This document shows positions 191 through 43,803 of a stretch of 64,000 nt of DNA, in pieces. Numbering within the stretch: position 1 is the first letter of the stretch; every line of letters begins with the position of its first letter. The notes under the pieces were generated by a model, which made no database searches, was not told the DNA's origin, and saw nothing but the letters and a program-made list of their open reading frames with translations. Made by a program: the position numbers and the translations under genes. Source of the stretch: Escherichia phage T5_ev219. The stretch lies in the sequence record NC_134263.1. One strand, 5' to 3'.

Positions 191-219
191 ATTATAACAA
201 GAAATTAAGCATTAAGCAA
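191..219 (-). promoter_or_regulatory. sigma70-type early promoter (-35 TTGCTT, 17-bp spacer, -10 TATAAT on minus strand)
   Basis: Plus strand shows ATTATA 191-196 and AAGCAA 214-219 with 17-bp spacing; AT-rich upstream tract; same architecture recurs about 17 times on the minus strand. Confidence 0.6.
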
Positions 220-238
220 CTGCGTTTTTTCTTGAAAT

Positions 239-317
239 TGGTAGATCGCCTGGGACTCGAACCCAGAACCTTCCGATTAAAAGTCGGATGCTACTAAACC
301 TATTGAGCTAGCGACCT
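239..317 (-). tRNA. tRNA-Lys (anticodon TTT)
   Basis: Reverse complement folds as cloverleaf: acceptor AGGTCGC/GCGATCT, anticodon stem TCCGA/TCGGA with loop CTTTTAA, T-arm CTGGG-TTCGAGT-CCCAG, encoded CCA. Confidence 0.75.
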
Positions 318-506
318 ATTAGTAACCATTATATACTTCTTTAATAGAGTGGACTTTTAAATAGGGATGATTAGTATTAAACTCTACCATTACTTCATCC
401 CAATTTTTACCATAATGGGCAAGTAAGGATTTTGATGTATTCTTACCTAAACGTTTGTCACTTACTACTAATCGAAATACTTTCATTTCGAAATCCTCTA
501 TTAAAA

Positions 507-584
507 TGGAAGCGGGTGCAGGAATCGAACCTACCTCTTTCTAGCTTATGAGACTAGTGATCTCTACCAGAGATCTAACCCGCA
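507..584 (-). tRNA. tRNA-Met or Ile2 (anticodon CAT)
   Basis: U8, D-arm GATC-TCTGGTAGA-GATC, anticodon stem CTAGT/GCTAG with loop CTCATAA, T-loop TTCGATT, encoded CCA; position 1-72 appears unpaired (T-T). Confidence 0.65.
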
Positions 585-590
585 ATTGTT

Positions 591-668
591 TGGTCTCCGT
601 GGGAGGATTTGAACCCCCGACCCTATCGCCCCAAACGAAACGCTCTGACCAAACTGAGCTACACGGAG
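591..668 (-). tRNA. tRNA-Pro (anticodon TGG)
   Basis: Perfect 7-bp acceptor CTCCGTG/CACGGAG, D-arm GCTC-AGTTTGGTCA-GAGC, anticodon loop TTTGGGG, T-arm GGGGG-TTCAAAT-CCTCC, encoded CCA; one mismatch in anticodon stem. Confidence 0.65.
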
Positions 669-863
669 AATATTATTTCTTCAACCACAACAAAGATAAG
701 CCCAGCATACTAAAGCCGCTAACTAATCCGATACCTTTTTCTTCTATAGTAAAAGTATCTAGATTAAATGCTGTTATAGCTATTGGCATACACCATAATG
801 CCATAAAAACTTGAGCTATCTTGTGTTTCATTTTGCTTTCCTTCCCTTCACTTTATAAGATAT

Positions 864-892
864 ATTATACAGAGAATTAAGCAGAATAGCAA
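864..892 (-). promoter_or_regulatory. sigma70-type early promoter driving the tRNA cluster at 239-668
   Basis: ATTATA 864-869 and TAGCAA 887-892 on plus strand (rc TTGCTA-17 bp-TATAAT); AT-rich UP-like tract at 893-905. Confidence 0.6.
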
Positions 893-918
893 ATGAATTT
901 TTAATAAATTTACTTATT

Positions 919-1019
919 GTGTAGGCCACCTGGAGGCTATGAACCCCACGGCTGACAAAGAAGTTTGCGAGACCTCTCTTAAATGCCAGAATAGACCCGC
1001 CGATCTATCGGAACCTACA
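919..1019 (-). ncRNA. structured RNA candidate (tRNA-like, non-canonical)
   Basis: Ends pair as a 7-bp stem (TGTAGGT / GCCTACA), internal hairpin GATAGA-cccgccga-TCTATC and a T-loop-like GGGGTTCATAGCC; no ORF; lies in a transcribed tRNA island, but a canonical cloverleaf could not be built. Confidence 0.25.
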
Positions 1020-1039
1020 TAATAAGTAAACTTTATAGT

Positions 1040-1170
1040 GTCATTCTAGACAGGATTCGAACCTGTTATCACTTGTGCGGACTTACGAGAACCATTCTTT
1101 CACTCGAATCGAACGAGCTTCTGCCCTCGCCAAGTTGGTTTCCCCATCAACCACGCTAGAATGTTTGATT
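1040..1170 (-). ncRNA. tRNA-like element(s), unresolved
   Basis: Canonical T-arm ACAGG-TTCGAAT-CCTGT (rc of 1050-1066) and a second T-arm-like CTCG-AATCGAA-CGAG, but acceptor pairing implies either a 67-nt or a 120-nt molecule; possible Ser-type anticodon loop TTCGATT; not resolved by eye. Confidence 0.25.
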
Positions 1171-1284
1171 GTTTTCAGTGCAAGAGTCCGAGTCTTGGAC
1201 ACGACCGCTTCGCAAGTACATAGGCAGCTTATCATGAGTCAGCACTTCCGAATTGCTAGCTCCGTGTTCTGCACTGAAATTTTA

Positions 1285-1641
1285 TTAGTTTAACCGTAAA
1301 GTATTATCTACTTCACCATTAATTGTTCGGCATTCCTCTGGGATTGCCGGGGTGGCCTTGTATTCCCACCACTCAGCACCATCATATTCCCCACGTTCTA
1401 GCCAAGTTCCATCGGCAAACCATACATTACCATAAAGTAATTGTCCACCGTATCCAGAATCATATTCAAAGTCTAGGTTATTAAGAAAATCCTCAATATC
1501 TTCTTCTGCATAACCTAAAGGTAATACCCAAACTTTTTTATCCCCATAATACCCGAATTCTATTTTAATACACTTAACTTCAGAATTAGTATTTTTTAAG
1601 GCAAGTAACAGCTCTTCTTTAGCATTACGCATATTACGCAT
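1285..1641 (-). CDS. hypothetical protein (start trimmed to MRNMRN... to clear tRNA-Asp)
   Basis: ORF track 1285..1728; the N-terminal 29 codons overlap tRNA-Asp, so internal ATG at 1639-1641 is preferred. Confidence 0.5.
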   Translation of the reverse strand: MRNMRNAKEELLLALKNTNSEVKCIKIEFGYYGDKKVWVLPLGYAEEDIEDFLNNLDFEYDSGYGGQLLYGNVWFADGTWLERGEYDGAEWWEYKATPAIPEECRTINGEVDNTLRLN

Positions 1642-1666
1642 AATATATTCCCATACTGGATTAATT

Positions 1667-1743
1667 TGGCGCGACCGATGGGATTTGAACCCACATTCTC
1701 TCCCGTGACAGGGGAGTACCATTACCAAGCCAGCCCCGGTCGC
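1667..1743 (-). tRNA. tRNA-Asp (anticodon GTC)
   Basis: Acceptor GCGACCG/CGGTCGC, anticodon stem CTCCC/GGGAG with loop CTGTCAC, T-arm GTGGG-TTCAAAT-CCCAT, discriminator G, encoded CCA. Confidence 0.8.
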
Positions 1744-1752
1744 ATAATTTAT

Positions 1753-1938
1753 TTACTCAGCTTTGAGTTTTTCAATAGCTGCATTAAGTTCTTTAAGAAA
1801 CTCTTTTCGTACATTAAGACGATTGAGACTTACTAGTATATCATGTTTAAGTTCTTCGATGTATTTCTTTTCAACTTCAATATTGTTGATAGTGCTATCA
1901 CGATGAACTTCTAACTGTGCAATTACATTCTTGGACAT
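1753..1938 (-). CDS. hypothetical small protein (61 aa)
   Basis: ORF between tRNAs on the transcribed strand; coiled-coil-like composition. Confidence 0.4.
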   Translation of the reverse strand: MSKNVIAQLEVHRDSTINNIEVEKKYIEELKHDILVSLNRLNVRKEFLKELNAAIEKLKAE

Positions 1939-2040
1939 GCTTGTTTCCTCAGTTATTAATGAAAATGGTATCTGTGGCTGAATTCGATGTCAGCAATGAT
2001 AGCTGGTTGGCTACCGGTTTACTTAACTCTACACAGAATT

Positions 2041-2118
2041 TGGCGGTTCCTGCTGGATTCGAACCAGCAACCCTCAACTTAACAAGATGCCGCTCTAACC
2101 AATTAGAGCTAAGGAACC
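2041..2118 (-). tRNA. tRNA-Asn (anticodon GTT), tentative
   Basis: Acceptor GGTTCCT/AGGAACC, T-arm GCTGG-TTCGAAT-CCAGC, encoded CCA, anticodon loop TTGTTAA; anticodon stem has two mismatches. Confidence 0.5.
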
Positions 2119-2613
2119 ATATAAGTCAGAACTAGAGTTAATACGTTCTAGATATTTACTAAGATCCCTAGAATTTATACTAAACCACTCATGTTCTTTT
2201 AAATCTTTGAAATACTGGTGAATTAGTTTTTCACCTTTTCGTTTGTCAAACCAAAAAGACCAATGCTCTAACTTATAATCCCTATAAGGGGAATAAGTCT
2301 GATATTGAGCTAATCTCTCTTTTGGATTTTGACTCATACCTATTTTATACTGATTTTTCCATGCAGGATTACTAATACAGTATACAAAACCTTCAGAAAT
2401 AGGAAGTTTATTTTCCTGCTTAAACTTTATAAAGGAAAGTGCAGCAAGTTTTCTCGAATACATAGTATTTGTATTCTTTTTGGTATTACCATTGGTTCCT
2501 GAAAGATTTATATATTCTTCCATAAATCTCTGGATTAGTTCTGCGGTTATATAGAAGGGCTCATTAGTAACAACGCCTTTCTTTACCAAACTATCAAAAA
2601 CTTTTGTATGCAC
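2095..2613 (-). CDS. T5orf172-domain (GIY-YIG-like) protein
   Basis: Motif GFVYCISNPAWKNQYKIGMSQNPKERLAQYQT matches the T5orf172/MUG113 signature (NP..YKIG....ERL..Y.T); 3-prime end overlaps tRNA by about 24 nt. Confidence 0.65.
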   Translation of the reverse strand: MHTKVFDSLVKKGVVTNEPFYITAELIQRFMEEYINLSGTNGNTKKNTNTMYSRKLAALSFIKFKQENKLPISEGFVYCISNPAWKNQYKIGMSQNPKERLAQYQTYSPYRDYKLEHWSFWFDKRKGEKLIHQYFKDLKEHEWFSINSRDLSKYLERINSSSDLYGSLALIG

Positions 2614-2634
2614 TACTTCTTTCCTTTAGTAATT

Positions 2635-2710
2635 TGGACGACCGCATGAGATTTGAACTCACATAAAAAGGATTTGCAATCCTTCGCCTAAGCCATTCAG
2701 CCAACGGTCG
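2635..2710 (-). tRNA. tRNA-Cys (anticodon GCA)
   Basis: Acceptor CGACCGT/GCGGTCG, anticodon stem AAGGA/TCCTT with loop TTGCAAA, T-arm GTGAG-TTCAAAT-CTCAT, encoded CCA. Confidence 0.75.
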
Positions 2711-2897
2711 ATTTATCTTGTTTTTCGAGATCTTCAAATTCTAAATCATTGAAGTTCCCTAGAGTACGGGAGTAGAACCCGTCTCCTGCGTCATAGCCTG
2801 ATTTGCCACAATCACACATTTTAAATTCACGAAGATGTGTGAAAATATGCTCAGAACCACAACACTTAAATCTAACTAATCGTTTCATTAGTTTCAT
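2697..2897 (-). CDS. small Cys-rich protein (zinc-ribbon-like, 66 aa)
   Basis: CCGSEH...CDCGKSG cysteine pairs; promoter at 2926-2954 immediately upstream. Confidence 0.5.
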   Translation of the reverse strand: MKLMKRLVRFKCCGSEHIFTHLREFKMCDCGKSGYDAGDGFYSRTLGNFNDLEFEDLEKQDKSTVG

Positions 2898-2925
2898 TAG
2901 CTTCTCCAGTTCAATTTATATAATT

Positions 2926-2954
2926 ATTATATAGAACTTTTGGAAACTAAGCAA
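2926..2954 (-). promoter_or_regulatory. sigma70-type early promoter
   Basis: ATTATA 2926-2931, AAGCAA 2949-2954, 17-bp spacer. Confidence 0.55.
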
Positions 2955-3231
2955 CTACATTTTTTAAGAATTTGATGTCTTTCTTCTTCTTATATTTCCA
3001 CGTTAATGGATTCTGTCGATTGTGAACGCTTGAGATCTTCGTCTCGTCAAAGTTCTTCAATATCATGTAATCACAAGATAATTGTTCTAATGGAATGTGA
3101 TCACCGTCAAAAGCATATACATAAGGCTGTTGACTAGCACGATAATGATAGACTTTGTTAATTCTACGTTTCAGCGACTTATCAGCGCAGTAAATAAAGA
3201 AGTTTTCAGGATGCATCAGCATCTCCTTCAA
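2947..3231 (-). CDS. hypothetical protein (94 aa)
   Basis: ORF on transcribed strand between tRNA and promoter. Confidence 0.45.
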   Translation of the reverse strand: MKEMLMHPENFFIYCADKSLKRRINKVYHYRASQQPYVYAFDGDHIPLEQLSCDYMILKNFDETKISSVHNRQNPLTWKYKKKKDIKFLKNVVA

Positions 3232-3233
3232 TT

Positions 3234-3308
3234 TGGTGCACCCTGTTCGTATCGAACGAACCTCTCAAGCTCTTCAGGCAAGCGCTAATCCATCTCAGCT
3301 AAAGGTGC
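3234..3308 (-). tRNA. tRNA-Phe (anticodon GAA), tentative
   Basis: Acceptor GCACCTT/AGGGTGC, T-arm GTTCG-TTCGATA-CGAAC, anticodon loop CTGAAGA, encoded CCA; anticodon stem has two T-T mismatches. Confidence 0.5.
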
Positions 3309-3399
3309 AAATTTTGGCAAACCTACTAGGACTCGAACCTAGACCGTACGGTTTTGGAGACCGACATGCTGTCCAGTAACACTCTAGGAATGCAGAAAT

Positions 3400-3476
3400 T
3401 GGCGTCCTGTGCGGGGATCGAACCCGCAAATCCTACCTTGAAAGGGTAGTGACTTTACCAGTTTGTCTAACAGGAC
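3400..3476 (-). tRNA. tRNA-Glu (anticodon TTC)
   Basis: Acceptor GTCCTGT/ACAGGAC, anticodon stem CTACC/GGTAG with loop CTTTCAA, T-arm GCGGG-TTCGATC-CCCGC, encoded CCA. Confidence 0.8.
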
Positions 3477-3483
3477 TTAAATT

Positions 3484-3574
3484 TGGTGTTGGATGATGGA
3501 GTCGAACCACCCGAGACCCTTCCGAGTCGGCAGATTTACAGTCTGCTTCGCTACCTCTACGATACTAATCCAAC
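3484..3574 (-). tRNA. tRNA-Tyr (anticodon GTA), long variable arm
   Basis: Acceptor GTTGGAT/ATCCAAC, anticodon stem GCAGA/TCTGC with loop CTGTAAA, long variable arm, T-arm GTGG-TTCGACT-CCAT, encoded CCA. Confidence 0.8.
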
Positions 3575-3637
3575 ATATTTAAAAGTATTCAAATACTAGT
3601 TTAAACACTTTTAAATATGTTTCCGAATTAGATAACT

Positions 3638-3666
3638 ATTATACCAAGTTTTAAGGCACTGAGCAA
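3638..3666 (-). promoter_or_regulatory. sigma70-type early promoter driving tRNA-Tyr/Glu cluster
   Basis: ATTATA 3638-3643, GAGCAA 3661-3666, 17-bp spacer; followed at 3655-3695 by a 13-bp perfect inverted repeat. Confidence 0.5.
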
Positions 3667-3702
3667 GTCAAATTTTAAAGAACTTGCTCAGTGCTGTATT
3701 AG

Positions 3703-3978
3703 TTAGTCGAACTTAGGAGTGACAGTTAAGGAGAACGGAAGTTCGAAAACTTCTTCGCCCTCATTACTAACGGTAACTACACGACCTTTAAGTTCAGACA
3801 TTAAAATATCAATATCAGCTTTTGCATCTGGAGCCATGCCAGCTTCAATACATTTAGCTTTAACTTCCGGTAAAAGCTCTACGTTATAGAGATAGAGCCA
3901 CTCAATCTCACCTTCCCAGTCTTCCCAGGATTTGCAGATTGCACTTTCAATACCAGTTGCTACAACACGATTTTGCAT
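3703..3978 (-). CDS. hypothetical protein (91 aa)
   Basis: ORF with promoter at 4009-4038 upstream. Confidence 0.5.
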   Translation of the reverse strand: MQNRVVATGIESAICKSWEDWEGEIEWLYLYNVELLPEVKAKCIEAGMAPDAKADIDILMSELKGRVVTVSNEGEEVFELPFSLTVTPKFD

Positions 3979-4008
3979 TAATTAACTCCTTCATCAATTT
4001 ATATAACT

Positions 4009-4038
4009 ATTATACCAGAAATTTAAAGTAAAAGGCAA
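4009..4038 (-). promoter_or_regulatory. sigma70-type early promoter
   Basis: ATTATA 4009-4014, -35-like AAGGCA 4032-4037. Confidence 0.45.
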
Positions 4039-4068
4039 GTACATTTTTAAAAATTCTGTTTGGAGGAG

Positions 4069-4275
4069 CTAAACTCCAGATTTTTCGGCCAAGTCTAGAC
4101 TAATAAGAGTTATAGCCATAATTGCTGCACCGTGTTCTTTTTCTCCGGTGTTTTTAGCAGAGTCTATAATATCCTTAATCTGTTCGTAATAACTTTTTAC
4201 TTCTTGTTCAATGCCTGCCTCGGCTATCATGCCTTTAGCCATGAATCGTTGCATGGTAATTTCAGGATTAGCCAT
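4069..4275 (-). CDS. hypothetical protein (68 aa)
   Basis: ORF; start ATG overlaps stop of an upstream 55-aa ORF (ATGGCTAA), suggesting translational coupling. Confidence 0.5.
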   Translation of the reverse strand: MANPEITMQRFMAKGMIAEAGIEQEVKSYYEQIKDIIDSAKNTGEKEHGAAIMAITLISLDLAEKSGV

Positions 4276-4437
4276 GTTGTTTCTCCAGTTTCATTTTTAA
4301 TAGTTTACAGATGAAATCAACGTCTTCATCTGTGCCTAAGTCTCTATCCTCAAGGGTCGCCTTGAAGTTTTTCGTCAATTCCATGAGGATGATTTCCCTA
4401 GAACGACGTGTTGGCGGAGGTGGATGTCTATACATCT
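4273..4437 (-). CDS. hypothetical small protein (about 55 aa, below ORF-track cutoff)
   Basis: Hand-translated MYRHPPPPTRRSREIILMELTKNF...; stop overlaps next start. Confidence 0.3.
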
Positions 4438-4450
4438 TATTTCCTTAATT

Positions 4451-4527
4451 TGGTAGGGGTGGTGGGATTCGAACCCACAAAACCTGAATTTTAAGTCCAG
4501 TACCTATGCCAATTCGATTACACCCCC
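4451..4527 (-). tRNA. tRNA with anticodon TAA (Leu-type anticodon, short variable arm), tentative
   Basis: Acceptor GGGGGTG/CACCCCT, anticodon stem CTGGA/TTCAG with loop CTTAAAA, T-arm GTGGG-TTCGAAT-CCCAC, encoded CCA; D-arm poorly paired. Confidence 0.5.
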
Positions 4528-4628
4528 GTGTAATCAGTTTATTAGTTGATACATATTATAGCCTAAAGAAAACCCTACTACTAATCCTACTAACCAACCA
4601 ATATAATAATCTTTTAATTTCACGGGTG

Positions 4629-4814
4629 TCAACCTCGTTCAATATCTAGAGAAATACCACAGGTAGGATTAATGCCTGTGCCTTTGCACGTCGGACAAAC
4701 CCAGATATTACAGAATGTATCCCCTGCTTCTGCATCAGAACTTTCTCCAACTCCTAGACAGTCAGGACAGGCACATTCTTCTAGCTCTTGCTTGAGTTCT
4801 TGAAACTTAGACAT
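4629..4814 (-). CDS. small Cys-rich protein (61 aa, CxxC pairs, zinc-finger-like)
   Basis: CACPDC...CPTCKGTG...C motif pattern. Confidence 0.5.
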   Translation of the reverse strand: MSKFQELKQELEECACPDCLGVGESSDAEAGDTFCNIWVCPTCKGTGINPTCGISLDIERG

Positions 4815-4823
4815 ATAGTTTCC

Positions 4824-5012
4824 TTATTCAATTACTTTTGAGGCTTCAAGGGAGTCGATATAGTGTACGTTTTCTACCATAATCATATAATCTGCCACTT
4901 TATCCATAGCCTGAGCTTCAGAGGTAGCCCTGGCTAACCTATATCCTTTTTTATATTCATCCGGGTATTCCCTATCTGGAATAAACACAACATAAACTAG
5001 GTATAGTTCCAC
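4824..5012 (-). CDS. hypothetical protein (62 aa)
   Basis: ORF directly downstream of tRNA-Met on the transcribed strand. Confidence 0.4.
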   Translation of the reverse strand: MELYLVYVVFIPDREYPDEYKKGYRLARATSEAQAMDKVADYMIMVENVHYIDSLEASKVIE

Positions 5013-5033
5013 TTGTAACCCCTCTAATTAAAC

Positions 5034-5111
5034 TGGTGGCTCCCCGAGGATTCGAACCTACGTACCTTCCGGTTATGAGCCGGGTGCTCATACCATATGA
5101 GCTTGAGAACC
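5034..5111 (-). tRNA. tRNA-Met (anticodon CAT), tentative
   Basis: Acceptor GGTTCTC/GGGAGCC with G-U pairs, anticodon loop CTCATAA flanked by CCGG stems, T-loop TTCGAAT, encoded CCA; T-stem imperfect. Confidence 0.55.
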
Positions 5112-5117
5112 AGAATT

Positions 5118-5207
5118 TGGCGGAAGAAGTGGGAATCGAACCCACAAGGCTATATTTCAAACCGACAGATTAGCAATCTGCTGCAATACCGTTATGCTAT
5201 TCTTCCG
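5118..5207 (-). tRNA. tRNA-Ser (anticodon GCT), long variable arm
   Basis: Acceptor GGAAGAA/TTCTTCC, anticodon stem CAGA/TCTG with loop TTGCTAA, long variable arm, T-arm GTGGG-TTCGATT-CCCAC, encoded CCA. Confidence 0.8.
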
Positions 5208-5221
5208 AATTTATAAGATAT

Positions 5222-5250
5222 ATTATATTAGAAATTTAGCTTCATAGCAA
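5222..5250 (-). promoter_or_regulatory. sigma70-type early promoter driving tRNA-Ser/Met cluster
   Basis: ATTATA 5222-5227, TAGCAA 5245-5250, 17-bp spacer. Confidence 0.55.
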
Positions 5251-5310
5251 GAAAATTTTTCAAGTTTTCGGTAGACATCTCATCCACATCTACAGGAGAA
5301 ACAAATCCAT

Positions 5311-5745
5311 TTAATTGTCTAGCAAATTTTCACCAGCAGGATCATTATCCCCAACAGCTACCAATTTAAAAGGTAATAATTTCAGTTGCTTTAATAACGC
5401 TTTTCCTGGAGAAGAACCCAACATTGCTAGGGCTGGATAACCAGCGTTATGTAACGCAACTGCCTTAAATACAGATTCAGCGATCAATACTACTTTTTCA
5501 TCTCCATTGAGAGTTTCTAGTCCCCATACACACTGGGTAGTAGAATAAGTAAAATATTTAGCTTCAAAGGGACACTTACCATGACCTTTTGGAGCAGAAG
5601 GATTATAAGTTTGATAGCCCCTCAACATCCCAGAGAAGTCATACAACGGGACTGTTAGCCATCCTTCCGGACTTAACCAGCAATGATATTTTTCTGTATC
5701 AAATCCTCTAGATAAGAGGTGCTGTGTTAGCTCATCAACATTCAT
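5311..5745 (-). CDS. stand-alone TOPRIM-domain protein
   Basis: IAESVF (Toprim Glu) and VAVGDNDPAG (DxD) motifs; start moved to MNVDELT because ORF-track start lies upstream of the promoter at 5776-5804; RBS GAGAGAGGAA. Confidence 0.5.
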   Translation of the reverse strand: MNVDELTQHLLSRGFDTEKYHCWLSPEGWLTVPLYDFSGMLRGYQTYNPSAPKGHGKCPFEAKYFTYSTTQCVWGLETLNGDEKVVLIAESVFKAVALHNAGYPALAMLGSSPGKALLKQLKLLPFKLVAVGDNDPAGENLLDN

Positions 5746-5775
5746 ATCTGGTTCCTCTCTCAAATTTATAGATAT

Positions 5776-5804
5776 ATTATACAGAGAATTTAGCATTCAA
5801 GCAA
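5776..5804 (-). promoter_or_regulatory. sigma70-type early promoter
   Basis: ATTATA 5776-5781, AAGCAA 5799-5804, 17-bp spacer, conserved downstream ATAAATTTGAGAGAGG leader. Confidence 0.6.
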
Positions 5805-5920
5805 TCAAATTTTTTAACTTTTTAGAGGAAAATCATAGGGCACTTAAGGGCAGCAGATAAGTGGTGAGGACCAAAATTTGTGACCCCACTAAAAATCCGG
5901 GGGCAATTTTTAAAGACCCT

Positions 5921-5949
5921 TTGACATTTTCGCCGGGGTAGTGTAAAGT
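5921..5949 (+). promoter_or_regulatory. plus-strand sigma70 promoter (TTGACATTTTCGCCG class)
   Basis: TTGACA 5921-5926, 17-bp spacer, TAAAGT -10; the 15-mer TTGACATTTTCGCCG recurs at 34561. Confidence 0.5.
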
Positions 5950-6011
5950 ATATGTTATGGATGAGTGATCAAAGAGACACACATTTTCTATATACTAGGA
6001 GGTGTCAAAAA

Positions 6012-6992
6012 ATGACAGAAGAAGTAGCTAAGAGTCCTGAGACCGTCGCTAGCGTAGCAGCAGAACTGCATCGTCACGAGGAATCAGATAAGAAAAAGTG
6101 GGAGAAGGTCAGAGCCTACGAAGAAGAACATCGTGAACACGATGATAAAGATGAAGAAGATGACGATGATGTACGTTGTCATAAATATGGAAAATATAAA
6201 ATGCAAGAACCAGTAAACGTATTTACTAACGGCTTCCCTGGCATGGGTGCATTCCCAGCTAACGCAAGTGCTTTCGGTGGAGAAGGTATGGGTCTATTCG
6301 GAGCTATCCTAATCGGTGCTCTATTAACCGGCGGATTTGGTGGTTTTGGTGGTTTTGGTCGTGGTGCTGGCGTTGCCGCTGAAGGAACCGCTGTGGACGC
6401 GATCCTTTCTAACCAGGATACTGCAAGTATTCTAGCTGCAATCAATACTACTCGTACAGAAGCTAACCAGGGCACTGGGGCTGTTCTAAGTGCAGTAAAC
6501 GGTGTGGGAGCTGCTCAAGCTGCTAGCACTCAGCAAGTTCTGACTACTATCTACGGTACAGGTGCTAATCTGTCAAACCAGATCTGTGCTGAAACTCGTA
6601 ACGTTATTCAGGGTCAGTTCGATCTTTCTCGTCAGATGGATCAATCTTTCGCTGCTAACCAGATAGCACGTGCTCAAGATAAGTTTGACTCTGCTCAGAT
6701 TGCTTTCCAGCAGTCTATTCAGACCAACAACCAGTTTGCCGCTGTTCAGGCTCAGATGTGCGCTAACCAGAACGCTATCGAACGTCAGCTTGCTGAATGT
6801 TGCTGTGAGCTTCAGACTGCGATCGCTGGTGTAACTACTGCACGTATCCAGGACGAACTGAATGAATGCCGTCTGCGCGAAGCAATCGCTGCAGGTAGCG
6901 GTGCAAATGGTCAGGTAATCAACCAAATCGCTGTAAGTCTTGGTGCTATCACTCAGACTCTGGCTGGTCTGCAGGCTAAACTGCCGGCTTAA
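6012..6992 (+). CDS. hypothetical protein: acidic N-terminus, Gly-rich hydrophobic segment, Q/A/N-rich C-terminal half
   Basis: AGGAGG RBS before ATG 6012; DDKDEEDDDD tract, GMGLFGAILIGALLTGGFGGFGGFG segment; host-like optimised codons (CGT, CTG, GGT). Confidence 0.6.
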   Translation: MTEEVAKSPETVASVAAELHRHEESDKKKWEKVRAYEEEHREHDDKDEEDDDDVRCHKYGKYKMQEPVNVFTNGFPGMGAFPANASAFGGEGMGLFGAILIGALLTGGFGGFGGFGRGAGVAAEGTAVDAILSNQDTASILAAINTTRTEANQGTGAVLSAVNGVGAAQAASTQQVLTTIYGTGANLSNQICAETRNVIQGQFDLSRQMDQSFAANQIARAQDKFDSAQIAFQQSIQTNNQFAAVQAQMCANQNAIERQLAECCCELQTAIAGVTTARIQDELNECRLREAIAAGSGANGQVINQIAVSLGAITQTLAGLQAKLPA

Positions 6993-7013
6993 AATTAAGG
7001 GGAGGAGCCCATT

Positions 7014-7430: not shown

Positions 7431-7439
7431 GGAGGAATT

Positions 7440-7634: not shown

Positions 7635-7649
7635 GGAACCAAACAATAA

Positions 7650-7686: not shown

Positions 7687-7690
7687 CTTA

Positions 7691-16127: not shown

Positions 16128-16157
16128 TTTATTATCCTTTTTGTACTTATTGAGTAT

Positions 16158-16187
16158 ATTATATTTGAAATTGTACTTAATAAGCAA
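16158..16187 (-). promoter_or_regulatory. sigma70-type early promoter
   Basis: ATTATA 16158-16163, AAGCAA 16182-16187. Confidence 0.5.
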
Positions 16188-16194
16188 ATACAAT

Positions 16195-16222
16195 TTCAAA
16201 TATAATAGCCCCGAAGGGCTAT
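16195..16222 (-). terminator. rho-independent terminator after thyA
   Basis: Hairpin TAGCCC-cgaa-GGGCTA with T-rich 3-prime tail on minus strand. Confidence 0.55.
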
Positions 16223-18742: not shown

Positions 18743-18772
18743 TGATTTTCCTCTTTCTCACTATTTCAGGAA

Positions 18773-18801
18773 TATTATAGCAAATCTGGTAGTGATTAGC
18801 A
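18773..18801 (-). promoter_or_regulatory. sigma70-type early promoter for nrdB-frd-thyA
   Basis: ATTATA 18773-18778, TAGCAA 18796-18801, 17-bp spacer. Confidence 0.6.
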
Positions 18802-18811
18802 AGTAAAATTT

Positions 18812-18848
18812 CAAAGAAAAAGGAGACCCGAAGATCTCCTTGTTTTTA
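18812..18848 (-). terminator. rho-independent terminator after nrdA
   Basis: Hairpin AAGGAGATC-ttcg-GGTCTCCTT flanked by T runs on both strands. Confidence 0.55.
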
Positions 18849-22306: not shown

Positions 22307-22370
22307 TCCTATAGTGTACTTCGCTAACAGAGGATCAACAAAAAGATCTTGTTTATCAACTTACAAATAT

Positions 22371-22399
22371 ATTATACCAATATATACAGTAAAAAGCAA
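22371..22399 (-). promoter_or_regulatory. sigma70-type early promoter for phoH (divergent from nrdD promoters)
   Basis: ATTATA 22371-22376, AAGCAA 22394-22399, 17-bp spacer. Confidence 0.6.
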
Positions 22400-22591
22400 C
22401 TACAATTTTAAATAAGCCTATGATATTGCATTTAAATAAAAAATTTGCTTGCTTTTAACGTGAGATGTGTGATACTAGATAATCATTTTATATCGCGTGC
22501 ACGAGTGCGTGATTATACAATTTTTAATAGAGATTGGCAAATAAAATTTTTTGACTCAGATCATGTTACAGAACTTTATAGTAAAATATTG

Positions 22592-22620
22592 TTGACATCC
22601 GCCCTCGAATGAGTTATAAT
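22592..22620 (+). promoter_or_regulatory. consensus sigma70 promoter for nrdD operon
   Basis: Perfect TTGACA 22592-22597, 17-bp spacer, perfect TATAAT 22615-22620; further promoter-like sites at 22449-22476. Confidence 0.7.
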
Positions 22621-22649
22621 AGTAGTCTTAGTTAGAGAAGGAGAGTATA

Positions 22650-24524: not shown

Positions 24525-24566
24525 GCTAATCAGCCGGGTTGCTAGTCGACCTGGCTTTTATTTTAT

Positions 24567-24595
24567 TTGCTTTCAGCCAAAAATTTATATATAAT
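24567..24595 (+). promoter_or_regulatory. sigma70-type early promoter (plus strand class with ATAAATTTGAGAGGAG leader)
   Basis: TTGCTT 24567-24572, 17-bp spacer, TATAAT 24590-24595. Confidence 0.6.
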
Positions 24596-24623
24596 AGATT
24601 TATAAATTTGAGAGGAGAAAGCT

Positions 24624-27654: not shown

Positions 27655-27695
27655 TATGCTCAAAGACACTGATAGCACCATCCGGAAAATTTTAC

Positions 27696-27724
27696 TTGCA
27701 GGATGCCCAAAATCTTGATATAAT
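27696..27724 (+). promoter_or_regulatory. sigma70-type promoter preceding a 500-nt ORF-free leader
   Basis: TTGCAG 27696-27701, 17-bp spacer, TATAAT 27719-27724, conserved ATTTATATTGAATTGAGAGA leader. Confidence 0.5.
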
Positions 27725-28221
27725 ATTTATATTGAATTGAGAGACATTAGTAAAAATTGATTTTGCTAATTTTTCTTGTTTACAATCCGCGATACGGAAC
27801 AGTTAGGCTGCCCCATTAAGGGTTGTTTTAACTATTACTAGTGTTTATATTGCATTAGTTAATCTTCAATTAAGTGATCTGTGTACCCTGAATTCGGAAA
27901 GGTAAATCCAAACCGTGCATATTTAGCTCGTTATATAGGCAGAGTTTTATATGGGGGTGCGAACGAAAAGAGCAGCGAATGGCGGCACGTACAGTAGTCA
28001 CCTACCAATAGGATAGTGAGGACAAATAGAATCGGCTTAGCGGCCAATGACCTAGGTTCTATTCTGTATATGAGCGAAGAGAGCACAGCACTGAGATATG
28101 ATAACTTATTCATATTGTTTGATGATAATTGATGTTTACGTAAATAGTAGTAATAGTTGTTCTATTCTTTCTGAATAGTCCTAAAGAAAAGATTTCGATT
28201 AACCAACACAGGAGTATTGTT

Positions 28222-31011: not shown

Positions 31012-31228
31012 AAAATGGGAAACAAGGAAGTTTCCAGTAAAAGAACGTAAAGTTCCTGTTTATGATACTTCGGAAAAGCTATGTAGGGTGGTTCCGCACA
31101 GATTAGCTGGCATCCCTAACATATCCGAGTGGTTACTTAAACAACGGAGGACTAACGTATCTCTTCGCATAGGGTTTGAGTTAGATAAAGTATATGCTGA
31201 ACTTTCTTCTTTGCTCAAGGAATCGTAA
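30995..31228 (+). CDS. hypothetical protein
   Basis: ORF overlapping end of previous gene; start at MTVKNKK. Confidence 0.4.
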   Translation: MTVKNKKWETRKFPVKERKVPVYDTSEKLCRVVPHRLAGIPNISEWLLKQRRTNVSLRIGFELDKVYAELSSLLKES

Positions 31229-31236
31229 AAATTTAT

Positions 31237-31265
31237 TTGCTTTCAGGAAAATTTTTCTGTATAAT
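31237..31265 (+). promoter_or_regulatory. strong sigma70 early promoter (sequence matches phage T5 PN25 from memory)
   Basis: TTGCTT 31237-31242, 17-bp spacer, TATAAT 31260-31265, AT-rich UP tract, leader ATAAATTTGAGAGAGGAG then ATG 31297. Confidence 0.75.
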
Positions 31266-31296
31266 AGATTCATAAATTTGAGAGAGGAGTTTAAAT

Positions 31297-32245: not shown

Positions 32246-32262
32246 CTACTTAAAAATTTCAG

Positions 32263-32291
32263 TTGCTTAATCCTACAATTCTTGATATAAT
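32263..32291 (+). promoter_or_regulatory. sigma70-type early promoter
   Basis: TTGCTT 32263-32268, 17-bp spacer, TATAAT 32286-32291. Confidence 0.6.
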
Positions 32292-32348
32292 ATTCTCATA
32301 GTTTGAAAGAACTATTCTGTTTAATTCTTAATTAAGGAAATATAAAAT

Positions 32349-33451: not shown

Positions 33452-33468
33452 TTCTTGGCTTTTTCTTT
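33438..33468 (+). terminator. rho-independent terminator
   Basis: Hairpin GCCAAGAA-tgcctag-TTCTTGGC followed by TTTTTCTTT. Confidence 0.65.
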
Positions 33469-33478
33469 ATAAATGTAT

Positions 33479-33507
33479 TTGCTTTCAACTCAGTTTTGTT
33501 ATATAAT
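33479..33507 (+). promoter_or_regulatory. sigma70-type early promoter for ligase A
   Basis: TTGCTT 33479-33484, 17-bp spacer, TATAAT 33502-33507. Confidence 0.6.
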
Positions 33508-33538
33508 ATTTATATAAATTAATGAGAGATATAAATAA

Positions 33539-34510: not shown

Positions 34511-34560
34511 TACATAACCCTTTGCTACCCATCTACCATATCGGAATTATAAAGTGGTTA

Positions 34561-34589
34561 TTGACATTTTCGCCGCTTAGGTATATACT
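34561..34589 (+). promoter_or_regulatory. sigma70 promoter (TTGACATTTTCGCCG class) inside ligase spacer
   Basis: TTGACA 34561-34566, 17-bp spacer, TATACT 34584-34589; shares 15-mer with promoter at 5921. Confidence 0.5.
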
Positions 34590-34653
34590 ATTATCATTCA
34601 GTTGAGGGATAGAAAGTTATGGCGAGGGTAAGCAAAGTTAGTTAAAATTGTAG

Positions 34654-34682
34654 TTGCTAAATGCTTAAATACTTGCTATAAT
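34654..34682 (+). promoter_or_regulatory. sigma70-type early promoter for ligase B
   Basis: TTGCTA 34654-34659, 17-bp spacer, TATAAT 34677-34682, conserved leader. Confidence 0.6.
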
Positions 34683-34712
34683 ATTTATATAAATTGATAA
34701 GGAAGAAATTTG

Positions 34713-38334: not shown

Positions 38335-39221
38335 GTAGAATAACAGAATTACTTGATCTTAAGGGAATTGAGTATAAAGATACTGGTGGAGATATTTTAA
38401 TCTGTTGCTTAAATCCAGATCATGACGATAAACACCCAAGTTTGCGTATTGACCCTGAAACAGGTATTATGCACTGCTTGAGTTGTGGCTTCGGTAAAGG
38501 TATACCGAGCATTTACCATTATTTTAATGAGACTCAGTACCGACAGTCCCCAAGGCTATCGCAAGTACGTAAAAAGATTTCAGAGATTAGGAATGGATCA
38601 ACGAATCTTGCAATTCCTGAATCTGCTTGCCTTTTCGAAGGTGATTTCCGAGGTATAAGTTCTAAGACCTTGAAGAAATATTTTGCTTTCCAACACCAAG
38701 CAGACTGGGAAGGCAGAATTGTATTCCCAATCACAGATGCTGTTGGACGCAATATCCTATTTTTGGGTCGTTCTATAAACAGTTCTGCCCCTCCTAAATA
38801 CTTAGTAAAACCAAAACAAGTTTCACCGCCAATTTTTCCTGTACGATATAATACTCCAGTTCTTATTCTAGTTGAAGGCATCTTTGATATGCTGAACCTA
38901 GAGGATAATGGTATAGACTATACTTCTTGCTGCTTTGGTACACACCAGTTTACTTCGGATAACATTGCAGATAAGTTCAGTCCTTATATTATTGCCGGTG
39001 TAAAAGTTGTTGTTATCTTACTAGATAATGATGCTTCTGGTAATAAAGCTGCCCAGGCGCTAGCAAAATTAATTAGTACAAAAACGCGTTTAACACCTGT
39101 AGTTGCTAACTTTCTTCTGCCTGAAGGTAAAGACCCTGGTGACTTAAATAAAGAAGAGATTGATATGTTAGCAAAACGTATTGAAATTTTAGTTGCTGAA
39201 TCGCTTAAAGATTTGGTATAA
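38331..39221 (+). CDS. DNA primase (DnaG-like, Zn finger plus TOPRIM)
   Basis: Zn-binding CCLNPDHDDKHPS...HCLSCG, TOPRIM LVEGIFD and LLDNDASG. Confidence 0.8.
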   Translation: MSRITELLDLKGIEYKDTGGDILICCLNPDHDDKHPSLRIDPETGIMHCLSCGFGKGIPSIYHYFNETQYRQSPRLSQVRKKISEIRNGSTNLAIPESACLFEGDFRGISSKTLKKYFAFQHQADWEGRIVFPITDAVGRNILFLGRSINSSAPPKYLVKPKQVSPPIFPVRYNTPVLILVEGIFDMLNLEDNGIDYTSCCFGTHQFTSDNIADKFSPYIIAGVKVVVILLDNDASGNKAAQALAKLISTKTRLTPVVANFLLPEGKDPGDLNKEEIDMLAKRIEILVAESLKDLV

Positions 39222-39283
39222 TATATTGGTAAGTTAGAGAAGAAACACTGAAGTTATACTTACTTACCAAGAGGAGATTAAAT

Positions 39284-41851: not shown

Positions 41852-42341
41852 TTTCAAATTGCCCGTCTATGCGTTACGGGCGTTTGTATCAATTGAGCAA
41901 GAAGGTGATTATTCCGTAATTACAACAAGATATAATAAATATGTGCTAGATAACAGGAAGTTGCCTGGCACGTTTTCTCAACGTAGGCTTATTCTATTTG
42001 AGAAACGGAAAGAATTACCATACAAGCTTTATCCTATTAGGGGTAGAATATCAATGTTGTCTCAATTAGTTGGGTCAAAGCGTAACCAATTTATAGATTC
42101 TGATGGAAATCTTATTAATTGGAAGAAAACTACGTTCTATGATGTTGTCACCTCTAAAGTTTTGCATTCAGCTAGAATTTATAATGGAAAATACCAATGC
42201 TATGTGGCTAAAGTTCCTTATCCATTTGTATTATCCTATGTTCCAGCTTATATAAGCTATATTCTGGTAAATAATAGCCCTGTTATTTATCAAGTCCATC
42301 AAGAGGAGCCTGAAATTCCTAGACTTAGAATAAAATTATGA
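41844..42341 (+). CDS. hypothetical protein (165 aa)
   Basis: ORF overlapping polymerase stop and helicase start. Confidence 0.5.
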   Translation: MLNFKLPVYALRAFVSIEQEGDYSVITTRYNKYVLDNRKLPGTFSQRRLILFEKRKELPYKLYPIRGRISMLSQLVGSKRNQFIDSDGNLINWKKTTFYDVVTSKVLHSARIYNGKYQCYVAKVPYPFVLSYVPAYISYILVNNSPVIYQVHQEEPEIPRLRIKL

Positions 42342-43690
42342 AGGTTGTTATATCTAATAAAGCCTATTTCAAGCCAGATGATGAACTTTGGGATTATTGT
42401 AGTAAGCAAACCACTTATCACATAGAGACAATGACTAGTAAATACCCTATTATGTATAAGAATAGTGGTGTTGTTGCCAAAGAGATTAAGTGGATTCCTA
42501 TTACGCGTCTGGACTTACTAGATGCTAAAGGAGTAAAATACGAATTAGTCGATAAACGCACATTAGCACCGGTAGATATACCAAAACCGTCGTTTAAACT
42601 GCGTGAAGAAGATCAGCTTCCAATATATGAAGAATGCGATGATACCTGTATTATTAATGGTAAGCCTGGGTTTGGTAAAACTATCCTAGCACTTGCACTT
42701 GCGTATAAATTTGGTCAGAAAACTTTGGTAATCTGTACGAATACATCCATTCGTGAAATGTGGGCGGCAGAAGTTCGTAAATGGTTTGGGTTTGAACCAG
42801 GCATCATAGGTTCTGGGAAATACAATATTGATCCACCAATTGTAGTCAGTAATATTCAAACAGTGAATAAACATGCGAATAATCTTTCTAAAGTATTCGG
42901 TACTGTTATAGTTGATGAAGTTCACCATTGTGTGGCTACAACTTTCACTAACTTCCTAGAAATATCATGTGCTCGCTATAAAATTGGACTATCTGGTACA
43001 CTAAAACGAAAAGATGGTTTACAAGTTATGTTCAAAGATTTCTTTGGATATAAGATATTTAGCCCACCGGTTAATAATACTGTTGCACCTACAATCCATA
43101 GGTACTCCGTGCCTGTTGAGCTATCAGGAAACCAAAACGTACCGTGGGCATTACGTGCTAATGATGTGTATAACCATCCTGAATATCGAGAGACTATTAT
43201 AAACCTAGCACATTTATATGTGAATATGGGACATAAGGTAATCATTGTAAGTGATAGAACAGAGTTAATCCAAACAGTACTAGAAGCTCTTACACAGCGT
43301 GGTGTTACAACCTATGAAATTATAGGAGCAACCCACTTAGATGACCGATTAAAAATTCAGGAAGATATAGCAAAAGGTGGACCTTGTGTACTTGCAGCAG
43401 CTCAAAGTATCTTCTCTGAAGGTATTTCCCTTAATGAGCTGTCTTGTTTAATAATGGGAAGCCTCATTAATAATGAATCTCTCATTGAACAGCTTGCAGG
43501 CCGTGTTCAACGTATTGTCGAGGGCAAACTCGACCCTATTGTTGTAGATCTAATCATGAAAGGTGGCACTGGACTAAGACAGGCTTCTGGACGTATGGCA
43601 GTATATCGTAACAACGGGTGGAAAACTATTACTATGACTCCGGAGAAAGCAGTTCAATTAGCTAAAATTGCATTTGGCAACAGCTCATAA
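42338..43690 (+). CDS. SF2 DNA helicase (DEAH-type)
   Basis: Walker A GKPGFGKT, Walker B DEVHH, motif VI QLAGRVQR. Confidence 0.8.
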   Translation: MKVVISNKAYFKPDDELWDYCSKQTTYHIETMTSKYPIMYKNSGVVAKEIKWIPITRLDLLDAKGVKYELVDKRTLAPVDIPKPSFKLREEDQLPIYEECDDTCIINGKPGFGKTILALALAYKFGQKTLVICTNTSIREMWAAEVRKWFGFEPGIIGSGKYNIDPPIVVSNIQTVNKHANNLSKVFGTVIVDEVHHCVATTFTNFLEISCARYKIGLSGTLKRKDGLQVMFKDFFGYKIFSPPVNNTVAPTIHRYSVPVELSGNQNVPWALRANDVYNHPEYRETIINLAHLYVNMGHKVIIVSDRTELIQTVLEALTQRGVTTYEIIGATHLDDRLKIQEDIAKGGPCVLAAAQSIFSEGISLNELSCLIMGSLINNESLIEQLAGRVQRIVEGKLDPIVVDLIMKGGTGLRQASGRMAVYRNNGWKTITMTPEKAVQLAKIAFGNSS

Positions 43691-43702
43691 ATGATGTATA
43701 AT
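43674..43702 (+). promoter_or_regulatory. sigma70-type promoter inside helicase 3-prime end
   Basis: TTGGCA 43674-43679, 17-bp spacer, TATAAT 43697-43702, conserved leader ATAAATTTGAGAGAG. Confidence 0.5.
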
Positions 43703-43773
43703 ATATACATAAATTTGAGAGAGAAAGTTTCGGATTGATAAGAAAGTCCGAAGCAGAAAAATAAAAATTTTAG

Positions 43774-43803
43774 TTGCTAAATTCTCTCGAAATCTAGTAT
43801 AAT
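43774..43803 (+). promoter_or_regulatory. sigma70-type early promoter
   Basis: TTGCTA 43774-43779, 18-bp spacer, TATAAT 43798-43803. Confidence 0.55.

Follow-up and report, generated by a model that had tools for sequence, protein, structure and literature searches.

The repeated promoter units of Escherichia phage T5_ev219 (NC_134263.1) are ordinary T5 early promoters, a family that is already known and annotated. We put at about 0.93 the probability that they represent a T5-like phage's early (class II) promoters, read by unmodified host RNA polymerase (RNAP) with σ70. The window, that is, the whole 64-kb stretch of DNA analysed here (64,000 nt), is 95-97% identical to T5 and Bf23, which bears out the T5-like identity (Tequintavirus) proposed for the phage; it comprises the early region and the beginning of the late region. 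What we observe directly is the motif, its orientation and its excess over chance, along with one-to-one orthologues among the T5 promoters and conservation that extends to other genera.

All 29 sites map one-to-one onto annotated 'promoter' features of T5 (AY543070, AY692264), and alignment to known T5 promoters, proposed as a check in the sequence-only reading, gave each of them an annotated counterpart in AY543070 (29/29). These counterparts bear the historical names P13a/b, P14a/b, P15a/b/c, P12, P16-17, P-D/E33 and P-H207, together with P-N25, P-N26, P-K28a/b and P31A/B; the remaining features are unnamed. Most sites are 92-100% identical to the 75-nt T5 features (nine of them 75/75), and consensus, orientation and downstream genes are shared between the two phages. 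The site at 22486..22552, which has an atypical transcript start, was paired with its T5 feature by position and by eye, as it gave no BLAST hit at E <1e-8. The cargo differs: the window has a 150-bp insertion after P16-17 and, after the 16132..16199 promoter, two inserted ORFs before rnh, one of which is an HNH endonuclease, whereas T5 carries hegH and hegI, which the window lacks.

Cloning and sequencing of the T5 early promoters, on which the Bujard and Ksenzenko laboratories worked, date from the 1980s. In T5, host σ70 RNAP transcribes every gene class (PMC7472727). The same paper describes the early promoters as sharing −10, −35, an ATATT discriminator and a UP element, and relates that in vitro transcription had served to identify T5 promoters (Gentz and Bujard 1985). 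Primer extension in T5 revealed early activity in vivo for P15A and Ppol, with products for only 11 of the 19 promoters tested (PMC7472727); some annotated sites may therefore be weak or inactive in infection. The σ70 dependence, strength and early timing that we ascribe to the sites in the window would follow from this literature on their T5 orthologues.

The expectation of more than 25 copies proved correct. TTGCTW-N17-TATAAT has 18 exact matches in the 64-kb window, against 0.03 expected from shuffles, with 13 on the minus strand (191-22399) and 5 on the plus strand (24567-34682). A weight matrix built from these 18 sites recovers 23 sites in the window at 21.7-68 bits; the top score in 20 shuffles was 9.2 bits. 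Under relaxed criteria (spacer of 16-18 bp, one hexamer mismatch permitted), followed by curation of the list, the set grew to 26 TTGCTW-type sites (the 18 exact ones plus 8 that deviate by one −35 mismatch, an 18-bp spacer or both) and 3 TTGACA-type sites, spanning 165-43829 (Table 1). The family was also recovered independently by a repeat finder (for example, D1, whose 12 copies are 62 nt long and 61-81% identical). It is the T5-specific consensus that carries the statistical support, because a generic TTGACA/TATAAT scan of the A+T-rich window showed no enrichment (52 sites versus 58.3 expected). That generic σ70 scan misses most family members, since TTGCTT scores poorly against TTGACA, and was used solely for its terminator list. 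The copies had been called near-identical, a description that does not hold at the level of the family: the 77-nt units have a mean pairwise identity of 54% (range 35-75%), compared with 26% for random 77-mers. The longest exact run common to two units is 27 nt (median 9 nt), and only a few pairs reach 85-87% identity, over 53-60 nt.

Table 1 Early promoter sites in the window, with one late promoter for contrast
Promoter	Position (strand)	Elements	Relation to T5	Surroundings and remarks
P13b orthologue	165..231 (-)	TTGCTT-17-TATAAT; predicted +1 at 184	98.5% to P13b	
P13a orthologue	838..904 (-)	TTGCTA-17-TATAAT	92%	
P14b orthologue	2900..2966 (-)		98.7%	
P14a orthologue	3612..3678 (-)	TTGCTC −35		57 nt upstream of tRNA-Tyr
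P15c orthologue	3983..4050 (-)	TTGCCT, 18-bp spacer		
P15b orthologue	5196..5262 (-)	predicted +1 at 5215		+1 9 nt before tRNA-Ser (5118-5206)
P15a orthologue	5750..5816 (-)	leader ATAAATTTGAGAGAGGAA		leader 1 nt off PN25 leader
P12 orthologue, second class	5909..5975 (+)	TTGACATTTTCGCCG..., −10 TAAAGT		
P16-17 orthologue	9583..9649 (-)			drives RNAX and tRNA-Arg
P-D/E33 orthologue	10265..10331 (-)		75/75	
Early promoter	11105..11171 (-)		unnamed in AY543070 (43067-43141)	
Early promoter	12432..12498 (-)		unnamed in AY543070 (44393-44467)	
P-H207 orthologue	14304..14370 (-)		75/75	
Early promoter	14655..14721 (-)		unnamed	upstream of RNase H region
Early promoter	16132..16199 (-)	18-bp spacer		terminator-like hairpin just upstream
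Early promoter	18748..18814 (-)			upstream of nrdB; terminator-like hairpin upstream
Early promoter	22345..22411 (-)		75/75	upstream of phoH
Tandem upstream promoter	22486..22552 (-)	TTGCCA-17-TATAAT	positional orthologue of 53776-53850	
nrdD promoter	22580..22646 (+)	TTGACA-17-TATAAT, perfect consensus		
Early promoter	24555..24621 (+)			terminator-like hairpin before it (24532-24556); 87% to PN25 over 53 nt
Early promoter	27684..27750 (+)	TTGCAG −35	75/75	
P-N25	31225..31291 (+)		identical to PN25 from −45 to +20	start codon at 31297
P-N26	32251..32317 (+)		75/75	
Early promoter	33467..33533 (+)			upstream of ligA; terminator-like hairpin before it (33434-33462)
P-K28b, second class	34549..34615 (+)	TTGACATTTTCGCCG, −10 TATACT		93 bp upstream of P-K28a
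P-K28a	34642..34708 (+)			directly upstream of ligB
DNA polymerase promoter (Ppol)	39181..39248 (+)	TTGCTG, 18-bp spacer		
P31A	43662..43728 (+)	TTGGCA −35	75/75	no ORF directly downstream
P31B	43762..43829 (+)	TTGCTA, 18-bp spacer	75/75	
P-G25, late (contrast)	60034..60100 (-)	TTGATA-17-TATAAT; no TTGCTW, no ATAAATT		

Every site agrees in orientation with the direction of its downstream genes or tRNAs. The nrdD promoter is the point at which leftward and rightward early transcription diverge; transcription would run leftward up to ~22.5 kb and rightward beyond. At about one promoter per 1.5 kb, the family would break up the early region into numerous transcription units, each of them short and strongly expressed. 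Scattered among the TTGCTW early promoters are three with a −35 of the TTGACA type (P12, nrdD and P-K28b), a minority class. The second promoter class suggested from two sequence copies is real: TTGACATTTTCGCCG occurs exactly at 5921 and 34561 only, and these are the annotated P12 and P-K28b. P12, TTGACA-type and on the strand opposite to its neighbours, drives a plus-strand module of three ORFs that ends at a terminator at ~7650-7686 (hairpin and T-run), annotated as bidirectional in T5. The block of this operon (5855-7699) is entirely absent from DT57C. With its own promoter, ORFs, terminator and variable presence, the P12 operon is a moron-like module; its proteins had no match in Pfam or PADLOC. 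On the late side, the repeat D14 (60082-60117 versus 63812-63847) was considered as a second promoter of the P-G25 type and rejected, as it consists of a terminator T-run and the A-rich ribosome-binding site (RBS) of the pb2 gene.

The copy at 31231-31300 had been recognized as PN25, correctly: 31227-31291 matches P-N25 of AY543070 at 65 of 65 positions. Compared with T5, the PN25 A-tract of the window is shorter by one A, and an additional T precedes the start codon. The commercial or synthetic 'T5 promoter' (pQE-type vectors, lac operators) derives from the sequence at 31225-31291. In the vector version, lac operators stand in for both the spacer and the start of the transcript, whereas the natural copy has no such replacement. 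From the A-tract through GGAGTT, PN25 of the window matches the primer sequence in PMC4447248, where PN25 is termed a 'strong coliphage promoter', and the natural PN25 serves as a constitutive promoter (PMC11498084, PMC4447248).

Each early promoter would be a signal of ~65-75 bp, described here with predicted +1 positions, all set 7 nt downstream of the −10 and falling, for example, at 31272 for P-N25, 5769 for P15a and 39229 for Ppol. Bases conserved outside the hexamers amount to ~40 bits over the 26 TTGCTW-type sites, which cannot be an artefact of site selection. The upstream A-tract has A at −45 to −42 in 22-26 of the 26 sites (AAAA in 22/26), followed by T at −40 (25/26) and A at −37 (23/26); the tract and the T-rich bases after it would form a UP-element-like contact for the α subunits. 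TTGCTW takes the place of TTGACA as the −35 hexamer, with an A+T-rich spacer of 17 bp, sometimes 18 bp, leading to a perfect TATAAT −10. The canonical TGn of an extended −10 (TG at −15/−14) is found in only 9 of the 26 sites, and G at −13 is commoner (16/26). The discriminator is A/T-rich and roughly ATATT: 25/26 sites have A at −6, 19/26 have T at −5, 25/26 have A/T at −4 and 20/26 have T at −3. Just five of the 26 show ATATT exactly, so the feature is a consensus tendency and no strict rule. At +1 to +7, ATAAATT is exact in 15/26 and within one mismatch in 17/26, followed by a purine-rich run; together they would make up an initial transcribed sequence (ATAAATT, then a GAGAGGAG-like run). 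Strong σ70 promoters of the rrnB P1 type, with a UP element, have in common with the family the A/T-rich tract upstream of −35, the σ70 hexamers and the 17-bp spacing. The T5 family differs in its non-consensus −35 (TTGCTW) combined with a perfect −10, in a discriminator that is A/T-rich instead of G+C-rich and in a transcript start conserved family-wide.

Of the conserved transcribed leader that had been proposed, the core is general, namely ATAAATT and then a purine run, whereas the exact 18-nt ATAAATTTGAGAGAGGAG occurs once only, at PN25. Allowing up to three mismatches gives five matches, one of which (37417-37434, minus) is not at a promoter. A search of the whole window with Rfam found tRNAs only, and no known RNA family overlapping the leaders. 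The transcribed part may have two roles: it would carry the Shine-Dalgarno sequence for genes whose start lies 21-26 nt beyond +1, and in all copies it would act as a promoter component affecting promoter escape; class-specific regulation may be added to these. In N25, the initial transcribed sequence controls abortive initiation and escape (PMC4005639).

The same architecture is found at orthologous positions in Klebsiella phage KPN4 (10 orthologue pairs). The −10 (100% identical) and −35 (90%) of these pairs are largely fixed by ascertainment, as the KPN4 sites were located by a TTG...TATAAT scan that presets 6/6 −10 bases and 3/6 −35 bases. Identity is 62-63% in the UP region, the discriminator and the initial transcribed sequence, and only 41-53% in the spacer and flanks. 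Pattern search combined with DNA alignment found the architecture in Proteus, Vibrio and Aeromonas phages of the family as well, with pattern counts that are lower bounds. The tandem promoters between ligA and ligB, TTGAC-type upstream and TTGCT-type downstream, are present in six Demerecviridae genera.

It is possible, although doubtful, that A−6/T−3 of the discriminator, ATAAATT and perhaps TTGCT versus TTGAC form a class code on top of the σ70 promoter, read by phage-encoded factors. Just as tentatively, RNAP- or DNA-binding proteins (gpT5.026, D5, others) could switch early promoters off and late ones on. The mechanism of early-to-late switching has been described as unknown and the discriminator as the main difference between early and late promoters; gpT5.026 weakens the RNAP-discriminator interaction, although its effects in vitro are weak (PMC7472727). 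TTGCTW and ATAAATT are both missing from late P-G25 in the window and from pre-early P-H22 in T5, orthologues in the promoter pair between ligA and ligB retain their −35 type across the six genera, and the transcript start is better conserved than the spacer; the TTGCT and TTGAC types may have a regulatory meaning. However, the transcribed sequence has an intrinsic role in escape (PMC4005639) and contains a Shine-Dalgarno sequence, and either property could account for its conservation with no factor involved; the contrast of early with late draws on very few sequences, with one late promoter in the window.

Conservation of the leader solely for translation, as a Shine-Dalgarno sequence plus an A/U-rich enhancer with no role in transcription, is unlikely. 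About 15 sites do have a start codon 27-32 nt after the −10, and a GAGG or GGAG motif lies 5-10 nt before the start codon at ~15 sites. The suggestion that the leader supplies the RBS thus stands only where the start codon falls 21-26 nt after +1. ATAAATT and the purine run are also kept at promoters of tRNA or stable-RNA genes, among them P13b (stable RNA, RNA2H in T5, and tRNAs, with no CDS), P15b (ATAAATT with a 9-nt leader and no CDS downstream) and P16-17, and where no ORF follows within ~100 nt (P31A, P31B and P-K28b); the leader motif is therefore more than an RBS. Moreover, the N25anti variant, in which the N25 transcribed region is replaced, is a strongly abortive promoter (PMC4005639).

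Nothing we found supports the proposed use of the copies as recombination sites, and we consider it very unlikely that the repeated units are mobile regulatory cassettes or sites at which gene modules are shuffled, in the manner of the promoter-stem-loop (PeSL) cassettes of T4-type phages. Many collinearity breaks against T5 and DT57C do have one edge that coincides exactly with the 3′ end of a promoter unit (2900, 3615, 3989, 9591, 16155, 18772 and 24612), with one more just upstream of P13b (235-244), and the few pairs with 85-87% identity noted above would suit exchange between copies. However, none of the ~20 indels relative to these two genomes has promoter copies on both sides. The segments inserted or lost are whole genes, often HNH homing endonucleases (hegH and hegI in T5), whose ends necessarily adjoin a promoter because genes begin ~25 nt after it, and the exact runs shared between units are as short as given above. 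The annotated T5 st0 deletion involves a 10-bp repeat, with its junction between tRNA-Asp and a disrupted ORF and no promoter feature annotated. In PeSL cassettes, a promoter is coupled to a stem-loop and repeated copies flank variable modules on both sides. The T5 family resembles them in its many early-promoter units amid small ORFs and tRNAs of variable gene content, with adjoining indel edges, but a terminator-like hairpin lies upstream of only 5 of the 29 promoters and is missing from the other 24, and promoters flank none of the indels relative to T5 or DT57C on both sides. We therefore rejected the terminator-promoter cassette model, which holds at only those five sites, and recombination between copies; indels of whole genes and homing endonucleases explain the pattern.

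Middle promoters of T4 that depend on MotA have a box centred near −30, ~12 bp from the −10, and require the phage activator. That the TTGCTT box serves as such an activator site (sigma appropriation) and not as a true −35 has next to no probability: (A/T)TTTGCTT(A/T)A does resemble the MotA box, and both systems have a phage-specific variant of the −35 region, but TTGCTT stands at the canonical 17 bp of a σ70 −35 from TATAAT, ~3 bp further out than the MotA box, PN25 is expressed constitutively in uninfected E. coli with no phage activator (PMC11498084, PMC4447248) and T5 promoters were found by in vitro transcription, according to PMC7472727.

As early promoters of the T5 type, the family confirms a T5-like phage and provides a ready map of the transcription units of its early region, with nothing new in kind. 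One of its members, PN25, underlies widely used expression vectors. Candidate handles on the early-to-late switch of T5 are the class-specific conserved bases around +1 and the two −35 types whose conserved pairing precedes ligB.

The promoter-like sites of the window are members of the T5 early promoter family, orthologous to named promoters that earlier work has annotated and studied in depth. The T5 records AY692264 and AY543070 hold 'regulatory/promoter' features, and BLAST of the 75-nt AY543070 features against the window pairs its sites with P13b, P13a, P14b, P14a, P15c, P15b, P15a, P12, P16-17, P-D/E33, P-H207, P-N25, P-N26, P-K28b, P-K28a, P31A, P31B and unnamed features. Identity is 92–100% for most and 75/75 at nine; the site at 22540, which gave no BLAST match at the threshold used, was paired by position and by eye with T5 feature 53776–53850. 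The copy near 31231–31300, which the sequence-only reading had matched to PN25, is indeed that promoter: window 31227–31291 is identical to annotated P-N25 (65/65), and the copy departs from T5 only in an upstream A-tract that is shorter by one A and in an additional T immediately 5′ of the start codon. Primers in PMC4447248 print the same sequence as 'the strong coliphage promoter PN25'.

The T5-like identity proposed for the window is likewise confirmed. Megablast of window 30000–36000 and 1–15000 against a phage collection returns hundreds of matches to T5-like phages (Tequintavirus), headed by Bf23 (97.6%), chee24 (~97%) and T5 (94.7–96.9%). Gene order runs from a tRNA cluster (14 tRNAs by ARAGORN, 15 by Rfam) through nucleotide-metabolism and replication genes to the first tail genes, so that the window takes in the larger part of the early region and the beginning of the late one. 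One tRNA (5037–5111, minus strand) has an Rfam match of 40.3 bits and no ARAGORN call; its positional counterpart is T5 tRNA-Ile2 (CAU). In the late region, tandem repeats (periods 21 nt and 75 nt) lie densely packed at 53003–53862 within a large ORF (51660–54086, minus strand) that presumably encodes a tail fibre built of heptad-like or 25-residue repeats.

Exact TTGCTW-N17-TATAAT occurs 18 times, 13 on the minus strand (191–22399) and 5 on the plus strand (24567–34682), against 0.03 expected from dinucleotide-preserving shuffles. A weight matrix trained on these 18 matches finds 23 sites at 21.7–68 bits, the top score over 20 shuffled windows being 9.2 bits, and a relaxed search (16–18 bp spacer, one hexamer mismatch) gains P15c, the promoters at 16187 and 22540, and P31B. 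The curated set, spanning 165–43829, holds 26 TTGCTW-type and 3 TTGACA-type sites, in line with the more than 25 copies first proposed. A repeat finder used with no prior knowledge recovers the family as its repeats D1, D3, D5, D6, D8, D9, D12 and D13 and most inverted pairs. The copies are not, as had been claimed, near-identical: 77-nt promoter units share 54% mean identity (range 35–75%; random 77-mers, 26%), the longest exact run common to any two is 27 nt (median 9 nt), and only a few pairs reach 85–87% over 53–60 nt. The 18-nt leader ATAAATTTGAGAGAGGAG is exact at PN25 alone; allowing ≤3 mismatches gives five matches, of which one has no connection with a promoter.

The late part of the window yields a sole comparable site, P-G25 at 60088. 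This late promoter (60034–60100, minus strand; TTGATA-17-TATAAT) is without the early-family −35 and transcript start. Its RBS is AAGAGGAGAAATTAACTATGAG, which resembles the 'RBSII' of pQE-type expression vectors.

Across the 26 TTGCTW-type sites, conservation extends well beyond the hexamers (table below), and the information outside both, ~40 bits, cannot stem from site selection.

Anatomy of the 26 TTGCTW-type sites, with positions relative to a +1 assumed at the seventh base after the −10
Element	Position	Conservation
Upstream A-tract	−45, −44, −43, −42	A in 22/26, 24/26, 25/26, 26/26
Upstream single positions	−40; −37	T 25/26; A 23/26
−35 hexamer		T, T, G 26/26; C 25/26; T 22/26; then A or T
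Spacer	−25/−24; −17 to −15	A+T-rich; weak C/Y preference; T-rich
Directly 5′ of −10	−13	G 16/26; canonical TGn extended −10 in just 9/26
−10 hexamer		TATAAT 26/26
Discriminator	−6; −5; −3	A 25/26; T 19/26; T 20/26
Transcript start	+1 to +7 (predicted)	A-T-A-A-A-T-T, 17–22/26 per position; then purine run to ~+16

That the transcribed leader supplies the RBS holds in part: at ~15 sites a start codon preceded by GAGG or GGAG lies 27–32 nt after the −10. ATAAATT and the purine run are conserved as well ahead of tRNA or stable RNA at P13b, P15b (predicted +1 9 nt before tRNA-Ser) and P16-17, and at P31A, P31B and P-K28b, where no ORF follows for ~100 nt. The motif thus belongs to the promoter or the transcript 5′ end, and not to translation alone. 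PN25 is a classic case of promoter escape determined by the initial transcribed sequence, whose replacement in N25anti gives a strongly abortive promoter (PMC4005639).

The proposed second class, TTGACATTTTCGCCG at 5921 and 34561, exists and coincides, in annotated P12 and P-K28b, with the −35 plus the first part of the spacer. Both have a non-consensus −10 (TAAAGT and TATACT, respectively), and ATAAATT is missing from both. TTGAMATTTTC occurs four times in the 96.5 kb of T5 examined, three of these at the −35 of annotated promoters, namely P12, P-K28b and the holin/lysozyme promoter, which lies outside the window. The nrdD promoter (22592) joins P12 and P-K28b as the third site of TTGACA type, with a perfect TTGACA-17-TATAAT. 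In 1985, Gentz and Bujard reportedly held that the two consensus hexamers never occur together in strong T5 promoters. The nrdD promoter faces tandem leftward promoters at 22399 and 22540, a divergence point of early transcription (22345–22646).

In the ligA–ligB intergenic region (34511–34715), a TTGAC-type promoter lies ~90 bp upstream of a TTGCT-type one in six Demerecviridae genera. Since this tandem order is kept, the two −35 types are under selection and are not a product of drift. The upstream promoter retains the TTGACA(A)TTTTC box in the window, T5, KPN4 (TTGACATTTTC...TATACT) and VPT02 (TTGACAATTTTC...TATACT); its −10 is TATACT in these four and in AhSzw-1, and TATAAT in Stubb.

The family itself extends to these relatives. 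Klebsiella phage KPN4 (Sugarlandvirus; helicase 70% identical) has 12 TTGNNN-N16-18-TATAAT sites in 41.5 kb against 1.4 expected, at positions orthologous to the window promoters and with the same flanks. Among ten ortholog pairs, the −10 is 100% and the −35 90% identical, both figures being inflated by ascertainment; the UP region, discriminator and transcript start are 62–63% identical, the spacer halves and flanks only 41–53%. Similar sites occur in Proteus phage Stubb, Vibrio phage VPT02 and Aeromonas phage AhSzw-1 (helicase 33–41% identical).

The suggestion that promoter copies serve as recombination sites is unsupported: comparison with T5 and DT57C, two genomes and hence not a strong negative, reveals no indel with promoter copies on both flanks. 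Many collinearity breaks do coincide at one end with the exact 3′ boundary of a promoter unit (2900, 3615, 3989, 9591, 16155, 18772 and 24612). A further break is found just upstream of P13b (235–244), where T5 tRNA-Val is missing from the window, a 73-bp difference ending at the upstream edge of the unit. What varies is entire genes, among them several for HNH homing endonucleases (hegH and hegI in T5), and a terminator-like hairpin lies upstream of just 5 of the 29 promoters. Because of these three observations, recombination between copies is disfavoured; the simplest reading is that promoters stay while the cargo behind them is swapped.

Several variable segments were observed. Relative to T5 and DT57C, two extra ORFs lie between promoter 16187 and rnh (15200–16155), probably a homing-endonuclease insertion since ORF 15203–15748 encodes an HNH endonuclease (Pfam HNH_3, E = 8e-14). 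Both genomes also lack 150 bp that the window carries as an insertion directly downstream of P16-17 (9441–9591), in the region of the T5-annotated stable RNA 'RNAX'; an odd ARAGORN call of tRNA-Ser(ACT) lies nearby (9313–9386). The P12 module (5855–7699), wholly missing from DT57C, is a moron-like accessory block. It comprises a TTGACA-type promoter, three ORFs (~326, 138 and 64 aa) on the strand opposite to their neighbours and a 3′ hairpin plus T-run terminator (~7650–7686); its proteins have no match in Pfam or PADLOC.

In vitro transcription gave the first identification of T5 promoters (Gentz and Bujard 1985, as told in PMC7472727), and the host sigma70 RNA polymerase reads the genes of all three T5 classes (Klimuk et al. 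2020, PMC7472727). That paper ascribes to early promoters a common −35, −10, UP element and ATATT discriminator. In vivo, P15A and Ppol show early-promoter behaviour (PMC7472727), and in uninfected E. coli PN25 is constitutively active (PMC11498084, PMC4447248). The contact of RNA polymerase with the discriminator is weakened by the phage protein gpT5.026 (PMC7472727). The best-supported reading is that the early sites are strong, factor-independent sigma70 promoters. In each of them a UP-like A-tract is joined to a −35 short of consensus, a perfect −10 and a transcript start that favours escape, and at a spacing of about 1.5 kb they would drive short early transcription units. The A-tract may function as a UP element, and early promoters may be shut off in a factor-dependent manner.

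Klimuk et al. (2020, PMC7472727) describe the way in which T5 switches between classes as unknown. More tentatively, with a probability of roughly 0.3, the bases conserved near +1, together with the maintained division into two −35 types, could be a code through which phage factors regulate temporal classes; if true, this would bear on the T5 early-to-late switch.
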